A stretch of DNA of 64,000 bases, taken from NCBI GenBank assembly GCA_964427585.1, contig CAYRVC010000001.1, forward strand, positions 34,220 through 98,219. Direction: 5' to 3'. Origin of the DNA: an uncultured Candidatus Saccharibacteria bacterium (GTDB lineage Bacteria; Patescibacteriota; Minisyncoccia; Minisyncoccales; Staskawiczbacteraceae). A model generated the notes under the pieces. It was not told the origin of the DNA. It saw nothing but the letters and a program-made list of their open reading frames with translations, and searched no databases. Of the stretch, positions 2,368 to 50,641 are shown one piece after another. The stretch's first letter is position 1. Each line of letters begins with the position of its first letter. A program made the position numbers and the translations under genes.

Positions 2368-2736
2368 ATGATACAGTTAAGGTCAATGTTAAAAGTGGCT
2401 GACAACTCCGGAGCAAAAATTATCCAGGTTATTAACGTTCCGGGCGGGACTCGCCGGAGATACGGCGGCTTGGGGGATATAGTAGTGGCCGCGGTAAAGA
2501 AAGCCGAACCCAGAAAACTGGTTAAAAAACACGAAAAAGTGAAAGCGGTCATCATAAGGCTGAAAAAAGAGTATAAAAGAGCCGACGGATCGTATATCCG
2601 TTTTGACGACAACGCGGCTGTGATTTTAGGCGACGGAAAGCTTCCCAAGGCAACCAGGATTTTCGGGCCCACTGCCAGGGAATTGAAAGAAAAAGGCTTT
2701 GATAAAATAGCGACGATGGCCAGCGAATTGTTGTAA
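2368..2736 (+). CDS. rplN: 50S ribosomal protein L14
   Basis: [17 protein letters not shown]...IRFDDNAAV matches L14. Confidence 0.95.
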
Positions 2737-2857
2737 CCCCCACACCATAACGAGCCATTTTTTGGGGGTGTAATAGTATTAATTTTATAACACAGACGTA
2801 TGCTGAACAAATCAATTTTTTTAAAAATTTGATTTGGTGGCTCGTTTGGTGTGGGGG
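2737..2857 (+). promoter_or_regulatory. Structured 120-nt element with about 20-bp GC-rich terminal inverted repeats filling the rplN-rplX gap
   Basis: CCCCCACACCATAACGAGCCA (2737-2757) is complementary to TGGCTCGTTTGGTGTGGGGG (2838-2857) with a 1-nt bulge. An inner hairpin pairs 2808-2820 with 2823-2836. Confidence 0.6.
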
Positions 2858-3162
2858 TGAAAATAAAAAAGGGAGACAATGTTTTGGTGCAGTCAGGGAA
2901 AGACAGGGGTAAAAGCGGAAAAGTGCTTAGAGTTCTTGTTAAAAGAAACAGGATTTTGGTTGAAGGCGTAAATTTCAGAAAAAAACACGTAAGGCCGAAA
3001 AAAAGCGGGGAAAAGGGACAGATTGTGGATGTTTTATCGGCCTTGGATATTTCCAGCGTTAAAATAATCTGCCCCCGATGCGGGAAAGCGGCCAGGGTGG
3101 GTTATAAAATTGAAAATGAAAAAAAATTAAGGGTTTGCAAAAAATGCGGCCAGCAGATATGA
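2857..3162 (+). CDS. rplX: 50S ribosomal protein L24 (C-terminal CxxC..CxxC ribbon)
   Basis: The GTG at 2857 gives MKIKKGDNVLVQSGKDRGK, a canonical L24 N-terminus. The ORF track starts 6 nt earlier, at 2851. Confidence 0.92.
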   Translation: MKIKKGDNVLVQSGKDRGKSGKVLRVLVKRNRILVEGVNFRKKHVRPKKSGEKGQIVDVLSALDISSVKIICPRCGKAARVGYKIENEKKLRVCKKCGQQI

Positions 3163-10256: not shown

Positions 10257-11012
10257 ATGAAAAATTTGATTGCGGGGAATTGGAAGATGAATCCGGAAAC
10301 CGAAAAAGAAGCTAAGGCTCTTTTTTTAAAAATTAAAAAAGGAATAAAAAATATAAAGAATGCCGAGGTGGTTTTGTGTCCGCCGTTTTTGTATTTGCCC
10401 GTGTTGGCCAATATTCAGCCTGGCAAGATTTTTTTAGGTTCGCAGAATTGCTTCTGGGAAGAAAAAGGCGCTTTTACCGGCGAAATTTCAGCCTTAATGT
10501 TGAAGGATTTTAAGGTAAAGTACATTATTTTGGGGCATTCTGAGCGCCGGAAATATTTTAATGAAACAAACGAGCTAATTAATAAAAAAATAAAAAAAGC
10601 ATTGGATGAGGGCCTTAAAGTTATTTTTTGCGCAGGCGAGACGGCTGAGGAGAAAAGTAGCGGAAAAAAATTAGATGCTTTAGGCCGTCAGCTTAGGGAA
10701 GGGTTAAAAAATATTCCAAAAAACAAAATAAATGGCATAAGCATTGCCTATGAACCCGTCTGGTCGATTGGAACAGGGAATAATTGTTCCGTTGAAGAAA
10801 CGATGACTTCTGTTTTATCCATAAGAAAAATAATCGCGGATTTATACGGCAGGAAATCAGCTACCGGAATGAGGATTCTTTACGGCGGAAGCGTAAACAG
10901 CAAGAATGCAGGCCACTATATAAAGGAATCTAAGGCCAACGGCCTGTTGGCAGGAGGAGCTTCAACGAACGCGGAGGAGTTTATAAAAATTGTAAAATCT
11001 TCAGAACCTTGA
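10257..11012 (+). CDS. tpiA: Triosephosphate isomerase
   Basis: IAGNWKMN, ILGHSERR, AYEPVWSIGTG, YGGSV. Confidence 0.93.
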   Translation: MKNLIAGNWKMNPETEKEAKALFLKIKKGIKNIKNAEVVLCPPFLYLPVLANIQPGKIFLGSQNCFWEEKGAFTGEISALMLKDFKVKYIILGHSERRKYFNETNELINKKIKKALDEGLKVIFCAGETAEEKSSGKKLDALGRQLREGLKNIPKNKINGISIAYEPVWSIGTGNNCSVEETMTSVLSIRKIIADLYGRKSATGMRILYGGSVNSKNAGHYIKESKANGLLAGGASTNAEEFIKIVKSSEP

Positions 11013-11169
11013 GTTACGAAATGCCTTACGAATTATTTTATTTTGGATTGCGGGCGAGACTTTGCAAAAATTTTGAGGCATATACGGAGTATTCTGCCTC
11101 AAAATTTTTACAAAGGCGCAGCCCAAGCCAAAATATAAATAATTTAAGCGCATTTTGTAACTCAAGGTT
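11005..11169 (+). repeat. Family-A nested-hairpin element (MITE-like), copy 1, about 165 nt
   Basis: Near-identical to 44273-44434. Terminal inverted repeats are AACCTTGAGTTACGAAATGCC and their complement. The central hairpin is AAAATTTTGAGGCA/TGCCTCAAAATTTT. Confidence 0.9.
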
Positions 11170-11249
11170 CATAATAAAAAGTCGTTGGATGTATCTCAAA
11201 ATATATTCGCTGATTGACATAAGGGATATTTTTTAATAGCATAAGTAAT

Positions 11250-11789
11250 ATGTCTAATATTGAGGAAAGTCAAATACTTAGCGGGGGGTTTTACAGCCCC
11301 AGCAAAGGAAATTTGGAATTTAAGGAAGTCATAAAAGATATTTTCGGGTATATGGCGGAATTTCCGGAAAATCAGTATGAAATTGTAGTTGGTTGCGATT
11401 CTCCGTCTTCAGACAAGCCGTTTTTTCCTATTGCCATAGTGGTTTTAAAAGTAGGTTTTGGCGGCCGGTTTTTTTTAAAAAAAATGAGTTATCCGGAAGC
11501 TTTTTTAAAAAAATTTGCCAATATTAACTGGAAAAACAGAATTTTGCAGGAAGTTTATTTGTCTTGCGAGCTGGCCCTTTGTTTGAAAGAAGCGCTGGAA
11601 AAAGAAGCGAAAAAGAATGCTCTAAATTTTAATTATCAATTCCAGTATATTCATGCCGACGTCGGGGAACAGGGGAAAACAAAAGAAATGGTCAAAGAAG
11701 TGGTGGGCCTGATAAGAAGCAACGGCTTTGAAGCAAGAATAAAACCCCAGTCGTTTGCCGCATCTGTGGTGGCCGACCGCTATACATAG
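11250..11789 (+). CDS. YkuK/DUF458-type RNase H-like family protein
   Basis: YEIVVGCDS...AIVVLKVGFGGRFF and HADVGEQGKTKEMV...IKPQSFAASVVADRYT match the family pattern from memory. Confidence 0.55.
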   Translation: MSNIEESQILSGGFYSPSKGNLEFKEVIKDIFGYMAEFPENQYEIVVGCDSPSSDKPFFPIAIVVLKVGFGGRFFLKKMSYPEAFLKKFANINWKNRILQEVYLSCELALCLKEALEKEAKKNALNFNYQFQYIHADVGEQGKTKEMVKEVVGLIRSNGFEARIKPQSFAASVVADRYT

Positions 11790-31023: not shown

Positions 31024-32277
31024 ATGCTTCAATCAAAATTATTCTATAAAACAGCGAAAGAAAAGTCGGCCGATACCGAATCTATTTCACATGAATTGCT
31101 GACCCGCGCCGGGTTTGTTGACCAGCTTATGGCCGGGGTTTACACATTTTTGCCGCTGGGTTTTATGGTTTTGAAAAAAATTGAAAATATAATAAGAAAA
31201 AATATGGAAAACGCGGGCGGACAGGAAGTTTTAATGCCGGTTTTACAGCCGAAAGAAAACTGGCAGAAAACAGGCAGGTGGGAAACCCTGGACATACTTT
31301 TTAAAATAAAAGCCAGCGGCGAAAAAGAATATGCCTTAGGGCCTACCCACGAAGAAGTTATTTCTCCTCTGGCAAAGAAAATTATTTTTTCATATAAGGA
31401 CCTGCCTTTTTATCTTTTCCAGATACAGACAAAATTCAGAAACGAGCCAAGGGCGAAATCCGGCATTCTAAGGACGCGGGAATTTTTAATGAAAGACCTT
31501 TATTCTTTTCACGCAGACCAGGGAGATTTGGATAAATACTATGAAAAGATGCTAAAAGTTTATTTCAATATTTTTAAAGAATGCGGCATTTACAAAGGAG
31601 GAAAAAATCCGCATACTTACAGAACGCTGGCTTCCGGAGGAAGTTTTTCAAAATATTCAGACGAGTTTCAAACAATTACTGAAGCTGGAGAAGACATAAT
31701 TTATATCTGTAAAAAATGCCAGACTGCCGTCAATAAGGAAATTATAAGCGAAAATAAAAATTGCCCCAATTGCAAATCCGCAGATTTTGAAGAAAAAAAG
31801 GCGATTGAGGTGGGGAATATTTTTAAACTGGGAACAAAATATTCTTTGCCCTTTGATTTAAAATTCAGGGATAAGGACGGATCGGAAAAACCGGTTTTAA
31901 TGGGCTGTTACGGAATAGGGATTTCAAGGCTGATGGGCGCCGTTGCGGAGGCAAGTCACGACAACAAAGGAATAATCTGGCCTAAAAATATTGCTCCATT
32001 TTCAGCGCATTTGATTCTCGTGGAAAACAGCCGAAAGGTAAAACAGGCGGCTGATAAGATATACGACAATTTTCAAAAACAAAAAATTGAAATATTATAT
32101 GACGACAGGCAGGGAAAGTCGGTTGGAGAAAAATTTGCGGTTTCGGACTTGATTGGAATTCCGCATAGGATAGTGGTGTCTGAAAAAACACTGGCAAAAA
32201 ATTCGGTCGAAGTAAAGGAAAGGACAAAAAACCAGGCAAAATTAGTTAAGATAAAAGAATTAATAAAATTATTCTAA
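31024..32277 (+). CDS. proS: Proline--tRNA ligase, short form without an INS editing domain
   Basis: HELLTRAGFVDQLMAGVYTFLPLG, FRNEPRAKSGILRTREFLMKDLYSFH, GCYGIGISRL. A CxxC..CxxC insert lies between motifs 2 and 3. Confidence 0.9.
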   Translation: MLQSKLFYKTAKEKSADTESISHELLTRAGFVDQLMAGVYTFLPLGFMVLKKIENIIRKNMENAGGQEVLMPVLQPKENWQKTGRWETLDILFKIKASGEKEYALGPTHEEVISPLAKKIIFSYKDLPFYLFQIQTKFRNEPRAKSGILRTREFLMKDLYSFHADQGDLDKYYEKMLKVYFNIFKECGIYKGGKNPHTYRTLASGGSFSKYSDEFQTITEAGEDIIYICKKCQTAVNKEIISENKNCPNCKSADFEEKKAIEVGNIFKLGTKYSLPFDLKFRDKDGSEKPVLMGCYGIGISRLMGAVAEASHDNKGIIWPKNIAPFSAHLILVENSRKVKQAADKIYDNFQKQKIEILYDDRQGKSVGEKFAVSDLIGIPHRIVVSEKTLAKNSVEVKERTKNQAKLVKIKELIKLF

Positions 32278-32284
32278 TTAACCT

Positions 32285-32412
32285 AATTATTCTAATTGTT
32301 CTAATCAATGTCTAATTTCTAATGACTAATTCAAAAACCCGTTTCAGACATTAGACATTTTATCATTTAGATTTGATTAGAATAATTAGAGTAATTAGAA
32401 TAATTAGACATT
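32285..32412 (+). repeat. Family-B long-hairpin element (MITE-like), copy 1
   Basis: Highly similar to 38525-38661. The left arm is made of TTCTAAT-type units and the right arm of ATTAGA-type units, which are mutually complementary. Confidence 0.9.
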
Positions 32413-37836: not shown

Positions 37837-38516
37837 TGATAAAATTCGATAAAGTAACAAAAGTTTACCCCCCCGACAGCCTTGTGCTGGAAGATATTTC
37901 TTTTGAAATAAAAGAAGGGGAGTTTGTATCTATAGTGGGAAAATCCGGAGCCGGAAAAACAACCTTAACCCGCCTGCTTTTAGGGCTGGAAGAGCCGACC
38001 TCCGGCCGTGTGTATTTTGAAGGCGTAAATGTCCATGAAGCCAGCCCGCCCGAACTCCAGGCTATCAGGAGAAAAATAGGGGTGATCTACCAGGATTATA
38101 AGCTCCTTCCGGCAAAAACAGTTTATGAAAATGTCGCCTATATAATGGAAGTTGAAGGCAAGGAAAGCAGTGATATTTCAGGATATGTCAATAACATTTT
38201 AGACATAATCGGATTAAGCGGAAAAATGAATAATTTTCCAAAAGAGCTTTCCGGCGGGGAACAGCAGAGGCTGGCCATTGCCAGGGCGCTGGTTAAAAAT
38301 CCCTTGGTGATTGTGGCCGACGAGCCTACCGGCAACCTTGATCCTTACAACACATATGAAACCATTTCCCTTTTAGAGAAAATGAACAAAGCCGGAAAAA
38401 CAGTAATGCTTCTGACCCATGACAGGGAAGTGGTGAATAAGCTTGGCAAAAGGGTCATTACTTTAGATAGCGGAAGAATCGTAAGGGACGAAGATGAAGG
38501 AAGATTTATAATATAA
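37836..38516 (+). CDS. ftsE: Cell division ATP-binding protein FtsE
   Basis: Walker [13 protein letters not shown] signature LSGGEQQR, Walker [18 protein letters not shown] overlap with prfB. Confidence 0.9.
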
Positions 38517-38524
38517 ATTATTCG

Positions 38525-38661
38525 AATTATTCTAATTGTTCTAATTATTCTAATAAATGCCTAATTTCTAATGCCTAATTCAAAAATGGTTTTTAGACAT
38601 TAGACATTTTGTCATTGGGATTTGATTAGAATAATTAAAATAATTAGGTTAATTAGACATT
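38525..38661 (+). repeat. Family-B long-hairpin element, copy 2
   Basis: Aligns to 32285-32412 with one extra TATTCTAAT unit and a few substitutions. Confidence 0.9.
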
Positions 38662-43142: not shown

Positions 43143-43294
43143 ATGGGATATTTAAGCCTGAAACCGCATGAAAGGATTATTTTAGCTCTTGACGTGAGCT
43201 ATATAAGAAAAGCCAAAAATCTGGTTGCAGAATTATCTCCGCATGTGGGGGTTTTTAAAATCGGCTAAGAAAAGCGTTTAGATCGGAGGGATGA
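43143..43294 (+). pseudogene. pyrF: Relic of orotidine-5'-phosphate decarboxylase, N-terminal ~50 codons, frameshifted
   Basis: GGAGGG RBS, then MGYLSLKPHERIILALDVSYIRKAKNLVAELSPHVGVFKIG*. The +1 frame continues LRKAFRSEG*, which mimics the PyrF ...ALD...KVG.ELF..EG pattern. Confidence 0.6.
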
Positions 43295-44157
43295 AGTATG
43301 ACTGCATCATGGATTCCCAGGATAAGGAGGAGAAAATGAATGAAGAGCAGGAAAAAAAAGATTTGCTTGAAACAAAAGAAATTTTTGCCAAAGCCGGAGC
43401 GATAATAACCGGCGACCATTTTGTTTATGCTAAAAAGCCTGATGGCTGGTATCACGGTTTAGATTACGTGAATAAAGACGCGATATATCCTTTTGTAAAC
43501 TCGGTCAGCGAGTTGTGCCGGAAGCTTGCCCGCCGTTTTTGGGATTATAGCGTTGAAACGGTTGTGGGCCCGACTGTCGGCGCCGTGGTTTTGTCGCAGT
43601 GGACAGCCTACTGGCTGGCCCGGGCATTTAAACAGGATGTTATGGCGGTTTTTGCAGATCCAGAAGAAATATTTGAAGAAAGAAAAATCGGTTTGCAGGC
43701 TGAAATGGAATTCAACGCCTTCGGAAAGGTGAGAATAAAAGGCGAACAAATTGATATGGAAAGAGGCCTGGCAAGCATAGCTTTTTTTGATAAAATTTAC
43801 AGCCGAAGAGTTATCAGGCGGGGATATGACAGGCATGTAACGGGAAAAAAATGCCTTATTGTTGAAGATATTATCAATTCCGGGGAAACGGTCAGGATGA
43901 CCATTGACGCCGTGAAACGGGCCGGCGGAGAAGTCTTGGGCGTCGCCTGCCTTTGCAATCGCAGCGGCAAAAAGGTATCGGCTGAAACCCTTATTGTGCC
44001 GGAACTCGTTTCTTTATTGGATTTGGATATGAAAATGTTTAAGGAAGAAGAATGTCCCATATGCAGGGAAAAAGGGAAGAGGTCCGTACGCACGGATTTG
44101 GGCAAGGGAAAGGAATTTTTAGACAGGCTGGCTGAAGATTTCTGCCAGAGAAAATAA
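43291..44157 (+). CDS. Type I phosphoribosyltransferase, orotate PRTase-like
   Basis: PRPP loop CLIVEDIINSGETV. The N-terminal region is OPRT-like. The C-terminus has a CPIC motif. Confidence 0.65.
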   Translation: MKYDCIMDSQDKEEKMNEEQEKKDLLETKEIFAKAGAIITGDHFVYAKKPDGWYHGLDYVNKDAIYPFVNSVSELCRKLARRFWDYSVETVVGPTVGAVVLSQWTAYWLARAFKQDVMAVFADPEEIFEERKIGLQAEMEFNAFGKVRIKGEQIDMERGLASIAFFDKIYSRRVIRRGYDRHVTGKKCLIVEDIINSGETVRMTIDAVKRAGGEVLGVACLCNRSGKKVSAETLIVPELVSLLDLDMKMFKEEECPICREKGKRSVRTDLGKGKEFLDRLAEDFCQRK

Positions 44158-44272: not shown

Positions 44273-44434
44273 AACCTTGAGTTACGAAATGCCTTACGAA
44301 TTATTTTATTTTGGCTTGCGGGCGAGCCGAAGTAAAAATTTTGAGGCATATACGGAGTATTCTGCCTCAAAATTTTTACAAAAGCGTAGCCCAAGCCAAA
44401 ATTAAAGAATTTAAGGCATTTCGTAATTCAAGGT
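44273..44434 (+). repeat. Family-A nested-hairpin element, copy 2, about 162 nt
   Basis: Same orientation and near-identical to 11005-11169. It ends 8 nt before the ftsZ ATG. Confidence 0.9.
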
Positions 44435-44441
44435 AGTATAA

Positions 44442-46043
44442 ATGAAAAAAATAAAAAGAAAGGCTAAAATAAAGCAGATAAGGAAAAAAAGGCTTAAAAT
44501 TCCTAAAAGGAAAAAGCGCTTTTTCGTTAAAAAAACTAAAAAAGTGAAAAGCATAAATAGAAAAAGGCCGGCAAAAAGGAAAATGAAAACTGTCCGCCTC
44601 CGAAAAGCCGTTGCCGAAAACGCAGGAGAGTTTTTTTCGCCAAAGTCTCTTTTTAAGGCAAAAATAAAAGTCATTGGAATAGGCGGGGGAGGGGCGTCGA
44701 TTGTTTCTGAAATAGGCAGGTCTTTAGACAGGGCGACTTTTGTGATAGCCGACACGGATATCAGGGCTTTGAGGAAAAGGCAGGGAATAAAATATTTTTG
44801 GTTCGGCGAGGAGCTGGCCCACGGCTTAGGCACGGGCGTTAATCCGGGTTTGGCAAAGGAGGCCGCTCTGAAAGAAAAAGAAAAAATATCCGAATTTTTC
44901 AAAGGCCAGGACATTGTTGTTTTTATAGCTTCCCTGGGGGGAGGAGTGGGGTCGGGGGCAACGGAAATTTTTGCAAGGGCCGCTGAAGAATCAGGCGTTA
45001 TCAGCTTTGGGATATTTACCTTGCCCTTTAAGTTTGAAGGCGACAATAAAGCTAAGATAGCCAGGAACGCCCTGAAAAAAATAAGGGAATCGCTTAATGT
45101 TTCCGTTGCCATACCCAATGAAAAAATATTCAAAGTGATAGACAACAGCACCCCGATAGTGGAGGCATTTTCGGTTGTCAATAAAAATCTGGCTGATTCT
45201 TTGGAAAGCCTTATAGACCTTATTTATAATCCGGGAGTCATAAACATTGATTTTGCCGATGTGAGGACGATTTTAAGCGGCAGGGGGAATTTCGCCTTTT
45301 TGAATTCAGCTGAAGCTTCGGGCAAAAACAGGTCAGACGACCTCATTAAAAAAATAGCCGTAAACCCGCTGTACCAGAACAACAATTTTATTGCTGAAAA
45401 AATTCTTTTTAACATTGCGGGGGATTATTCGTTGAGCATGTCGGAAGTGGAAAAGATAAGCAGTTCTGTTTCAGGGCTGAATCCTGCGGCCAAAATCATT
45501 TTCGGAGTATCAAAAAATCCAAAACTCAAAAAGAAAATAAAAGCCACCCTGTTGATGGCAGGTCCCTCAAAAACGGATGCTTCGCCTGTTGAAAAGAAAG
45601 GCATAAAGGCTTTGAAAGAAGATAAGATATCGGCGGAAAAAGAAAAAGAAAAGAAGGCGTTGAAAGAATCTTTTAAACAAAAAAAGCCGAAAAAAGCTGA
45701 AAGCAAAGCCAAAAAACAAAAAAACAAAAGCAAGAAAGCGGTGGGCCAGGCGCAAGATAAAGAAGGCAAAGAAAACGCGCCGTTTATGATTCCGCCCTCC
45801 GGAGAGAGTTTTCCTAAAATTCCGGCGGAGGCTCCGGGAATATTCAGGCCAGAGAGGCTGGACTCCGTTTTGAAGCTTGAAGAAGATGGCGGAAGCGAAA
45901 AAAAACTTGCAGTAAAAAAAACAATAAGAAGGAACGCCCTGGAAATAAAAAAAGCGGAAGCGCTGGAGGAAGATAAAAGATTTTTGCAGGAGAAAGAATG
46001 GGAAATCCCCGCTTTTTTAAGAAAAATTAAATTCAAGCCGTAA
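44442..46043 (+). CDS. ftsZ: Cell division protein FtsZ (divergent; poly-basic N-terminal extension, long K/E linker)
   Basis: IKVIGIGGGG, GLGTGVNP, GGGVGSG, PFKFEG, C-terminal peptide IPAFLRK. An alternative start is at 44583. Confidence 0.88.
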   Translation: MKKIKRKAKIKQIRKKRLKIPKRKKRFFVKKTKKVKSINRKRPAKRKMKTVRLRKAVAENAGEFFSPKSLFKAKIKVIGIGGGGASIVSEIGRSLDRATFVIADTDIRALRKRQGIKYFWFGEELAHGLGTGVNPGLAKEAALKEKEKISEFFKGQDIVVFIASLGGGVGSGATEIFARAAEESGVISFGIFTLPFKFEGDNKAKIARNALKKIRESLNVSVAIPNEKIFKVIDNSTPIVEAFSVVNKNLADSLESLIDLIYNPGVINIDFADVRTILSGRGNFAFLNSAEASGKNRSDDLIKKIAVNPLYQNNNFIAEKILFNIAGDYSLSMSEVEKISSSVSGLNPAAKIIFGVSKNPKLKKKIKATLLMAGPSKTDASPVEKKGIKALKEDKISAEKEKEKKALKESFKQKKPKKAESKAKKQKNKSKKAVGQAQDKEGKENAPFMIPPSGESFPKIPAEAPGIFRPERLDSVLKLEEDGGSEKKLAVKKTIRRNALEIKKAEALEEDKRFLQEKEWEIPAFLRKIKFKP

Positions 46044-49372: not shown

Positions 49373-50641
49373 ATGAACATATTAAAATCACGCGCCAGAA
49401 TCGTTTTTGCAAAAGGAAAAGAAATTCTGGATTCACGGGGAAAACCAACAATAGAAGTTGAATTAAAAACCGATAAGGGAATTTTTTTTGCTTCGGTTCC
49501 GGCAGGCGTTTCCACTGGAAACGATGAAGCGTCAGAATTAAGGGATGATGACGGCAGGGGAGTGAAAAAAGCCATTGAAAACATAAACAAAATTATCGCT
49601 CCGAAGTTAAAAGGAAAAAATCCGGCAGAACAAAAAGAGATTGATGAAATAATGATTAATCTTGACGGCACGGAAAATAAATCAAAATTGGGAGCCAACG
49701 CCATGCTAGCCGTTTCAATGGCCGCGTGCCGGGCGGGAGCGGGCGCTAAAAAAATTCCGCTTTATCAGCACATTTTTAAGTTCGGGGGATCTCCGACATC
49801 CCCCGAAATAGAAATGGGGGGGTGTCGGAGATCCCCCGAACTTCCGTTTCCGATGTTTAATATAATTGAGGGCGGAAAACATGCGGATAATGATTTGGGT
49901 ATCCAGGAATTTCTGCTGGTTTGCCAAAAGAAAACGTTTTTGGAAAATTTAATCCTGGGAAATAAAATTTTCGGCGTTCTTAAAGAAACCATTGAAAAAA
50001 ATCATGGACCGGATGTAAGGCTGGGAGACGAGGGCGGATTCGCCCCTGATATTTCAAAAACAGAACAGGCATTGTATTTGTTAAAAAACGCGATAGCAAA
50101 AGAGCCGGACGCGAAAATCGCTTTGGATGCGGCTTCCTCGCAGTTTTATAAAAACGGAAAGTATGGAATAGACGGAGAGGAATTTACAAGGCAAGGCCTT
50201 TTGGAATTTTACGGGAATTTAATAAATAATTTTCCGATTATTTCCATTGAAGACCCGTTTTCAGAAGATGACTGGCAAGGATTTGAGTTTATTATGCGAC
50301 AAATGGGAGATAAAATATTGGTGGTTGCGGACGACCTTACGACAACTAACGCAAAAAAGATAAGGGAGGCAAAAAGCAGGTCGGCCTGCAATGCCGTAAT
50401 TATAAAACCGAACCAGATTGGCACGGTAAGCGAAACGATTGAGGCGATAAAAACAGCTAAACAAGCTGGCTTTAAAATCATAATCAGCCATAGGGCAGGG
50501 GAAACAGCGGATACATTTATTGCCGATTTGGCAGTAGGGGCTGAGGCCGATTTTATAAAATCAGGTTCTCCCTTAAAAGAAGAAAGAATGGTAAAATATA
50601 AAAGATTGCTGGAAATAGAAAAAGAATTAACATATGGCTAA
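49373..50641 (+). CDS. eno: Enolase (carrying a 20-aa in-frame insertion)
   Basis: ILDSRGKPTIEVE, GANAMLAVSMA, NIIEGGKHADN, DDLTTTN, IKPNQIGT, SHRAGET. Confidence 0.93.
   Translation: MNILKSRARIVFAKGKEILDSRGKPTIEVELKTDKGIFFASVPAGVSTGNDEASELRDDDGRGVKKAIENINKIIAPKLKGKNPAEQKEIDEIMINLDGTENKSKLGANAMLAVSMAACRAGAGAKKIPLYQHIFKFGGSPTSPEIEMGGCRRSPELPFPMFNIIEGGKHADNDLGIQEFLLVCQKKTFLENLILGNKIFGVLKETIEKNHGPDVRLGDEGGFAPDISKTEQALYLLKNAIAKEPDAKIALDAASSQFYKNGKYGIDGEEFTRQGLLEFYGNLINNFPIISIEDPFSEDDWQGFEFIMRQMGDKILVVADDLTTTNAKKIREAKSRSACNAVIIKPNQIGTVSETIEAIKTAKQAGFKIIISHRAGETADTFIADLAVGAEADFIKSGSPLKEERMVKYKRLLEIEKELTYG
49781..49840. repeat. 60-nt GC-rich hairpin inserted in-frame in eno
   Basis: TTCGGGGGATCTCCGACATCCCCC, loop GAAATAGAAAT, then GGGGGGGTGTCGGAGATCCCCCGAA. 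The stem is about 24 bp with one G-U pair. Confidence 0.9.

Follow-up and report, generated by a model that had tools for sequence, protein, structure and literature searches.

A probable MITE at the start codon of rplX in a Candidatus Staskawiczbacteria ribosomal-protein operon, with ends shared by units that carry a minimal GIY-YIG nuclease gene

MITEs, including those in operons that alter the expression of neighbouring genes (the Correia elements), are already known. The element described here, which occupies the gap between the ribosomal-protein genes rplN and rplX, resembles bacterial MITEs in that it is small (121 nt), has terminal inverted repeats of ~21 nt, is non-coding and is dispersed at unrelated sites; it also has longer relatives with the same ends and a gene, and short target duplications are found at other copies. 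It differs from them in two respects: the gene of the longer relatives encodes a GIY-YIG nuclease of 84-85 aa rather than a DDE, HUH, serine, tyrosine or DEDD transposase, and the copy in the window (the whole stretch of DNA that was analysed, 64,000 nt in length) lacks a clean duplication. Correia elements (CREE) are hairpin repeats of 100-150 bp with long inverted ends, which lie in or between operons, are co-transcribed and alter the expression of their neighbour. Hairpin size, long inverted ends and operon position are common to these and to the window family. However, the two have no sequence similarity, Correia elements duplicate TA rather than 4 bp, and the window family is strictly co-oriented with its neighbours and supplies a start codon rather than a promoter. 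We know of no partner gene for Correia elements. The Rickettsia palindromic elements (RPEs) are palindromic repeats of ~100-150 bp located within or against essential genes of a reduced genome and, like the window element, persist at such genes without destroying them; unlike it, they insert in frame and are translated, and they share no sequence similarity with it. To our knowledge, RPEs have neither a partner nuclease nor target duplications, and REPINs neither make 4-bp duplications nor abut start codons. The REPIN-RAYT system (PMC3116915) is comparable in combining hairpin-forming non-coding repeats with one small gene flanked by the same repeats, an arrangement that suggests mobilisation in trans, although RAYTs are HUH/Y1 single-strand transposases whereas the partner here is a GIY-YIG protein. 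The free-standing and intron-borne GIY-YIG homing genes (I-TevI and the Seg proteins) likewise encode a nuclease as the only product of a selfish unit, the insertion of which leaves the host gene functional. Homing enzymes possess large DNA-binding domains, recognise one long target and depend on repair-mediated copying, with no inverted ends or target duplications (PMC1564403). The window family, in contrast, has a bare 85-aa domain, many short targets, inverted ends and duplications.

The window opens with a ribosomal-protein operon (S19, L22, S3, L16, L29, S17, L14, L24, L5, S14, S8, L6, L18, S5, L15, SecY and Adk) in a genome of ~40% G+C. The L14-L24 gap is an outlier in this operon, the remaining junctions measuring 0-50 nt. 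An identical L14 is found in GCA_016181665.1, in which L24 is annotated as Candidatus Staskawiczbacteria (Patescibacteria/CPR) and the L14-L24 gap is again 120 nt. The features of the locus are listed below.

2368..2736, + strand: rplN coding sequence (ribosomal protein L14), from the ORF list and an identical protein in GCA_016181665.1 with a Pfam Ribosomal_L14 call
2737..2857, + strand: probable non-coding MITE of 121 nt, CCCCCACACCA-end family, from its fold, end-to-end homology, the nhmmer profile and ends common with GIY-YIG units
2737..2758, + strand: left terminal inverted repeat, with the 11-mer CCCCCACACCA at 2737-2747 and a bulge at T2748
2758..2771, + strand: T-run and internal G-run, TTTTTTGGGGGTGT, from alignments with other MITE copies
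2808..2836, + strand: interior AT-rich hairpin, from the fold and the alignment with the copy at L007
2837..2857, + strand: right terminal inverted repeat, ending in TGGTGTGGGGG (2847-2857)
2857..3162, + strand: rplX (ribosomal protein L24), 101 aa, GTG start

The rplN stop codon (TAA, 2734-2736) directly adjoins the element, and the GTG start of rplX (2857-2859) is a hybrid, its G derived from the element and its TG from the flank. Initiation at this codon yields (M)KIKKGDNV and an L24 of 101 aa, and nearly all of the 120 listed homologues are equally long. The right arm contains a GGTG (2848-2851) that is putatively Shine-Dalgarno-like, an in-frame GTG at 2851-2853 and, at 2857, the G with which the L24 start codon begins. 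The GTG at 2851, which would give MGVKIKK, is a possible alternative start for L24, and in a relative (P0043) the L24 gene call begins at the equivalent codon. At the other end of the protein (3070-3162), a CxxC...CxxC segment, CPRCGKAARVGYKIENEKKLRVCKKCGQQI, is conserved among the homologues retrieved, and the L24 tail of the window lineage seems to be zinc-ribbon-like.

The two arms, CCCCCACACCATAACGAGCCA (2737-2757) and TGGCTCGTTTGGTGTGGGGG (2838-2857), form an outer stem of 21 bp, composed of 11 bp, the bulged T2748 and a further 10 bp. The terminal 11-mer CCCCCACACCA is nearly invariant across the family, and the window MITE is oriented like the GIY-YIG-bearing members, with CCATAACGAG as its left arm and CTCGTTTGG as its right arm. 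The predicted minimum free energy of the element is -50.2 kcal/mol, compared with -25.0 +/- 3.5 kcal/mol for 200 dinucleotide shuffles (z = -7.2), none of which folded as well. The stem is kept in a 201-nt context, where it gains an extra pair (A2736-U2858). In a 321-nt context the unpaired probability is ~0.00 for 2848-2857 and 0.06 for U2858, whereas the corresponding start region of an element-free relative (L002) has values of 0.4-0.8; in the predicted ensemble, the L24 start is fully sequestered by the stem. The earlier note, made from the letters of this DNA, had described an element that begins immediately after the L14 stop and ends on the G of the L24 GTG, had taken the MKIKKGDNV start to be canonical, and had reported GC-rich arms complementary with one bulge around an AT-rich interior with its own hairpin. 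All of this is borne out, positions and sequences included: the length of L24 agrees with its homologues, the pairing is evident in both the sequence and the predicted fold, the interior hairpin is predicted at 2808-2836, and the fold outperforms the shuffled controls.

The element has no substantial ORF on the + strand, the lone ATG-initiated frame consisting of 10 codons from 2801, and the ORFs listed across it are mechanical, antisense frames that span rplN. When the hairpin was compared with Rfam, nothing matched at the gathering score (the only matches in the window were tRNAs elsewhere), and a relaxed threshold yielded only sub-threshold plant microRNA-precursor models, which are generic long-hairpin matches. 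An intrinsic terminator was also considered and was rejected for want of a U-run beyond the stem, where the sequence reads TGAAAATAAAAAAGG on the + strand and TTACAACAATTC on the - strand.

Comparison with other genomes identifies the gap as inserted material, as the earlier note had supposed. The closest relative found (L002; L14 89% and L24 78-80% identical) has a spacer of 2 nt (TAA-TT-ATG). Across a survey of 83 rplN-rplX junctions, the spacer is 1-20 nt in most Patescibacteria and 100-170 nt in a sizeable minority; the premise that L14 and L24 are normally separated by a short spacer holds for the majority, but long hairpin-filled spacers are not rare in the phylum. Every long spacer that was folded forms a long hairpin, each of a different sequence family, indicating that this junction repeatedly accepts hairpin-forming inserts and that no single RNA is conserved. 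Conservation at the orthologous position, as expected of a ribosomal-protein leader, is not seen: the closest relative is empty, and in the others the spacer is short or contains an unrelated hairpin. The spacers of L010, L032, L037, L043, L074 and L076 contain long hairpins that are unrelated in sequence, and the rplN-rplX junction looks like a hotspot for hairpin repeats. The ends of the L076 element are in common with those at L005/L012 (..TTCTAACGGG) and again finish on the rplX start codon. The L005/L012 element, with ends CCCCGTTAGAAG, looks like the representative of a sister family, and L076 looks related to it. We considered whether the window and L005/L012 elements are orthologous, their arms covarying, and rejected this, the arms being unrelated outside the C-run and G-run and the intervening closest relative being empty. 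At L005/L012 the junction reads ...TTATGAA, then the element, then TGAAAATA, which is consistent with insertion at an overlapping stop and start (ATGA); the left copy would retain the TGA stop and the last G of the element would convert the right copy to GTG. The window insertion could be explained likewise if the ancestral junction were TAATG. Among the 83 surveyed junctions, rplX genes starting with GTG occur only at element-bearing loci (window/L001 and L005/L012) and at L066. Two further observations concern other spacers. In a relative (L005 590-750), the L29-S17 gap is occupied by a 160-nt element whose inverted ends measure 18 nt (GTCCTGTTGCGAAATAAG ... CTTATTTCGCAACAGGAC), with a left arm that overlaps the L29 stop codon. 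In the Clostridia MAGs L024, L026, L027, L029, L031, L034, L035 and L038 the rplN-rplX spacer is consistently 150-215 nt, which could reflect a conserved leader or another repeat.

Copies of the window element were sought with its arms, as the earlier note had proposed for the genome or bin, where multiple copies would point to a mobile repeat. Copies are present at unrelated metagenome loci; within the 64-kb window the element is single, no second copy being detected with a 21-mer (3 mismatches), a 10-mer (1 mismatch) or the nhmmer family profile. The exact-arm scan of the metagenome collection identified two unrelated contigs (L007 and L006), while in the genome collection, within whose reach the source genome did not lie, the arm pattern gave 0 matches. 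In viral contigs, the two-arm pattern with a MITE-sized gap gave seven unrelated matches, all without the subterminal CCA(T/A)AAC, and with a nuclease-sized gap it gave 0 matches. At L007 (5971-6082) a 112-nt copy aligns with the window element over its full length, T-run/G-run and AT-rich hairpin included. This copy directly precedes tsaD, and the two are oriented to each other as the window copy and rplX are; L007 and the window have no nucleotide overlap, and tsaD is absent from the 64-kb window. The T-run/G-run of the window, TTTTTTGGGGGTGT, is kept at L007 (TTTTGTGGGGGAT) and in a nested copy at L100 (TTGTTGTGGGGTT); an alternative structure, in which the internal G-run pairs with the left C-run, is possible. 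The interior hairpin is maintained at L007 with a compensatory change (AAATCAA/TTGATTT compared with AAACCAA/TTGGTTT; T-A to C-G).

Another family member, of 139 nt, occupies the rplN-rplX spacer of a different lineage (L120; L24 68% identical), which was reached via an L24 homologue whose gene call starts MGVKIKK. Its right junction, GGGGG followed by TGAAAATAAAAAA, is identical to that of the window, while its left junction lies 10 nt past the L14 stop and its interior is unlike that of the window element, which suggests an independent insertion. The window copy is closer to the tsaD copy of L007 than to the L120 copy at its own locus and, as the closest relative is empty, independent insertions at the same site are the economical reading. 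A 106-nt copy is nested within the right end of a nuclease-bearing element at L100-L109, and L110 contains a MITE copy of 71 nt. The nhmmer family profile recovers L120, L007 and the nested copies of L100-L109 at E = 1e-18 to 1e-27. In its size (121 nt), its 21-bp arms with one bulge and the presence of copies at unrelated sites (L007, L100-L109, L110 and L120, all in other metagenomes or genomes), the window element corresponds to a MITE. The MITE-like reading of the earlier note is thereby supported and becomes more specific, that of a dispersed family whose ends also bound GIY-YIG genes and whose other members display 4-bp duplications and nesting. A 32-nt mini-hairpin, CCCCCACACCACAACGCAGTTTGGCGTGGGGG, consisting of two family ends and a short loop, was also observed at L090 236-267 (and at L096-L099), 3 nt past the stop codon of a gene; it may be a footprint or a minimal derivative.

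Several other repeats were noticed in the window. A second, unrelated MITE-like family, ~165 nt long, almost perfectly palindromic and with ends ACCTTGAGTTACGAAATGCCTTA, is present at 11004-11170 and 44274-44434, in the ORF gaps 10257-11012 / 11250-11789 and 43291-44157 / 44442-46043. The mutually similar AT-rich inverted-repeat blocks at 32258-32408 and 38516-38657, composed of TCTAATTA / ATTAGAATAATT-type units, may constitute a third repeat family. A 66-nt GC-rich near-perfect palindrome (AAGTTCGGGGGATCTCCGACATCCCCC ... GGGGGGTGTCGGAGATCCCCCGAACTT), with 27-nt arms that are 96% complementary, is located at 49778-49843.

Perfect 4-bp direct duplications, which take the form T..A or C..G, flank seven family insertions:

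TTGA, at L088
TGGA, at L006
TGAA, at L100
CTCG, at the MITE nested in the right end of the L100 element
CGCG, at L110
TAAA, at L111
CTTG, at the 71-nt MITE in L110

Removal of the L006 element together with one TGGA restores a continuous ORF (...IVYAW-TNPTANPPSG...). In all 14 tabulated elements the flank bases beside the two ends are complementary (A..T or G..C). The window copy is flanked by GTAA on the left and TGAA on the right, a match at 2 of 4 positions, and the L007, L090 and L120 copies are also without a perfect duplication; that the left flank of the window copy represents a TGAA duplication cut to TAA by a 1-nt deletion is speculative. The sequence CATTCA was observed immediately outside the left end at two unrelated loci, L120 (2863-2868) and L007 (6083-6088, reverse strand). 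At L120 it extends the palindrome (TTCA...TGAA). A 4-bp duplication does not account for CATTCA, which may belong to the end of a subfamily or reflect a preferred target.

Wherever a downstream gene or tRNA could be identified (11 distinct insertions), the element has the same orientation as that gene or tRNA. The right end abuts codon 2 in the window, at L120 and at L100 (GGT GTG GGG G/TG AAA, the slash marking the junction), and likewise at L007 and L090/L091 (G/TA AAA), where the in-frame GTG within the arm is the likely start. At L089 and L111 the right end lies 9-10 nt before an ATG, and at L088 it meets a promoter-like TTGACT-17-TATAGT before rpsL. At L110, ARAGORN places the start of a tRNA-Ile within the last GGG of the element, so that the element completes the acceptor stem, and the geometry is the same at another tRNA in L128. 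In genomes whose spacers are so short, purifying selection, rather than any trait of the element, could largely account for co-orientation and proximity to gene starts.

The second contig recovered by the exact-arm scan, L006, connects these repeats to a nuclease. Here, window-type ends (20/20 and 19/20) enclose an ORF for an 85-aa protein that matches the Pfam GIY-YIG domain (PF01541, E = 7e-16) and whose nearest solved structures are standalone UPF0213/Slx1-like domains (1zg2, E = 4e-8). A database search with this protein returned 64 homologues, mostly of 84-86 aa (range 75-91) and many on short contigs; the few that are named belong to Patescibacteria (Falkowbacteria and Staskawiczbacteria) or 'Ratteibacteria'. 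Each of the seven nuclease genes examined (the L006 ORF, P0122, P0138, P0169, P0141, P0153 and P0164; 61-100% identity, 84-85 aa) is bounded by CCCCCACACCA...TGGTGTGGGGG, in units of 281-413 bp, or 281-304 bp when the extra sequence present in L006 and L100 is left aside. The terminal 11-mers are nearly invariant although the nuclease proteins diverge to ~60%, and the subterminal bases vary between elements while matching within each (CGAGCCA, CGAGTT, CAAGTT, ATTATG and ATTAAGTTA); at L128 a compensatory change lies within the end core itself (CCCCCGCACC / GGTGCGGGGG). The catalytic residues (Tyr, Tyr-x-Gly, Arg, His and Glu) show no variation among 23 members. As in other MITE families, the short copies share their ends with longer, gene-carrying elements (the terminal 11-mers, at 7/7 GIY-YIG genes). 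The nuclease gene is not the source of the MITE interior; the common parts are the ends and, in L006, the right-hand interior. The association also has a boundary, as a distant GIY-YIG gene (P0176; 56% identity, on at least 24 contigs) lacks inverted ends (L112-L119, ~1420-1830); it sits in a tRNA-Pro with a ~32-bp duplication of the tRNA 5' half, and its downstream flanks differ between contigs.

The gene-carrying units combine inverted ends with a target duplication of fixed length, and the GIY-YIG nuclease is the only gene of these longer members, their sole ORF, with no DDE, HUH, serine, tyrosine or DEDD transposase. Nor do they resemble homing endonucleases, since the proteins of 84-85 aa comprise the catalytic domain only and the insertion sites are diverse. 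The short copies may be moved in trans by the nuclease of the family. That the 281-304-bp CCCCCACACCA-end units with their lone Slx1-like gene of 84-85 aa are autonomous transposable elements is a tentative proposal, to which we give slightly less than even odds. We know of no DNA transposase that is a GIY-YIG nuclease, and the 85-aa domain has no obvious DNA-binding or strand-transfer module, making the role of the nuclease in mobility circumstantial. Standalone Slx1-like domains of bacteria are regarded as probable repair proteins in a review of the superfamily (PMC1564403). Two other features of these units were observed. L088 and L089 have sequence in common leftward of and through the same nuclease element and wholly different right sides, a pattern suggestive of either recombination between copies or a switch in assembly at the repeat. 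On the + strand of L006 (~707-814), an ORF, MNKFISKDLIWITLISFLFALLLARLVWGW, runs in frame through the right arm into the interrupted host gene and resembles the displaced N-terminal membrane segment MNKLKTLFFSIIIGLTVAGIVYAW; this element may carry a replacement N-terminus for its host gene.

Taken at the locus itself, 2737-2857 is best explained, with a probability of roughly 0.8, as a non-autonomous MITE that inserted at the rplN stop and rplX start of a Candidatus Staskawiczbacteria operon and persists as a tolerated parasite rather than as an evolved regulator of L24. The insertion would have survived in an essential operon because both translation signals were preserved. On the left, the L14 stop would have stayed intact; on the right, the last G of the element and the leftover TG of the old ATG would have formed a GTG start, preceded by the GGTG of the arm. 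In the operon transcript, the 21-bp stem would set the L14 stop beside the L24 start and bury the latter. A ribosome terminating at the UAA (2734-2736) would cover ~10 nt onward, corresponding to the GC-rich outer half of the left arm, and would melt the outer ~10 bp (CCCCCACACC), freeing GGUGUGGGGG-UG for re-initiation while the inner stem holds the L24 start nearby. With GGUGUGGGGG-UG freed at L14 termination, L24 synthesis would stay coupled to that of L14 despite the 120 extra bases. This model of coupled translation is built on folding predictions, general knowledge of the ribosome footprint and known cases of structure-mediated coupling. In the MS2 coat-replicase and E. coli rpmI-rplT systems, a start is sequestered by upstream pairing and opened by a ribosome on the upstream cistron. 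The pairing in those systems is an evolved, conserved regulator, whereas here it would be a side effect of inverted ends; the sequestration is best read as a by-product of the palindromic ends of the repeat, which would carry a portable start site.

The main alternative is that the element has been domesticated as a processing site. RNase III would cleave the 21-bp stem of the operon transcript, excising the insert in the manner of an rRNA intervening sequence and splitting the L14 message from that of L24, which would be translated from the processed 5' end. RNase III accepts stems of such size, the stem is long and nearly perfect in the predicted fold, and the Correia elements of Neisseria are cut in like manner. 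In other Patescibacteria this spacer is home to many unrelated hairpin elements, implying that a hairpin here is at least harmless, and the insertions that contain GIY-YIG ORFs in CPR rRNA genes are reported not to be introns (PMC11270868). However, the GGUG and GUG of the right arm would be lost or shortened if the stem were cut within its length, and a 2-nt spacer serves the closest relative well. We consider processing of this kind an unlikely explanation.

The other reading raised by the earlier note, an RNA structure that sequesters the L24 initiation region and controls its translation, fares differently in its two parts. Burial of the start is reproduced in the predicted ensemble, in which the L24 start is wholly paired. 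An evolved cis-regulatory leader would require in addition that the stem open on a signal, such as the binding of L24 or another ribosomal protein, or a switch in which the terminal and internal G-runs exchange places as partners of the left C-run. Such leaders are common in ribosomal-protein operons, and the internal G-run (2764-2768), a possible competitor for the left C-run, is kept in other copies. Against dedicated control stand the absence of the element from the closest relative, the lack of a matching Rfam family (beyond the sub-threshold plant microRNA models), the different interior of the L120 copy at the same site, and the presence of the same sequence upstream of tsaD, within another element and around nuclease genes, which implies that the conserved features belong to the repeat and not to rplX. 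This distribution largely refutes a regulatory leader, which we regard as very improbable. A chance palindrome or an assembly artefact from a palindromic mis-join is scarcely credible, for although AT-rich genomes are rich in short palindromes and the window has 154 inverted-repeat pairs of at least 14 nt, none of the 200 shuffles folds equally well, the arm 21-mer is expected 0.00 times by chance, an identical element is present in an independent public assembly record (L001) and homologous copies are found in other samples.

Reading the insert as a tolerated MITE, the odd spacer becomes mobile DNA, and the sequestered L24 start follows from the ends of the repeat without invoking a new ribosomal-protein regulator. 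Our literature search, which left most subscription journals uncovered, found no description of inverted-end units with a minimal GIY-YIG nuclease as their sole gene, 4-bp duplications and MITE derivatives. The elements form a coherent and testable family, in which inverted ends, 4-bp duplications and nesting occur alongside a minimal GIY-YIG nuclease cargo, and this wider family is a candidate for a new class of mobile element. If the proposal of autonomous units is true, it would be the first DNA transposon family to rely on a GIY-YIG nuclease, and its units would rank with the smallest known autonomous mobile elements. The family would comprise MITE derivatives, the window copy among them, and would have a symmetric 4-bp target (T..A or C..G). 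At the right end, an outward-reading translation start (GGTG...GTG) or the ability to complete the 5' end of a tRNA would have evolved, and the family would colonise gene starts in the ultra-compact genomes of Patescibacteria, essential ribosomal-protein operons included. Should the nuclease drive mobility, DNA transposition would gain a catalytic class, and the unexplained standalone Slx1/UPF0213-like proteins of bacteria would gain a role. The family may also explain the non-intron insertions bearing GIY-YIG ORFs in CPR rRNA genes (PMC11270868). Gene calling in such genomes is affected as well, through GTG starts, 'MGV...' N-termini and inflated spacers. The locus also indicates how, in a streamlined genome, a parasite can occupy the start codon of an essential gene: it supplies a new start in place of the old one.
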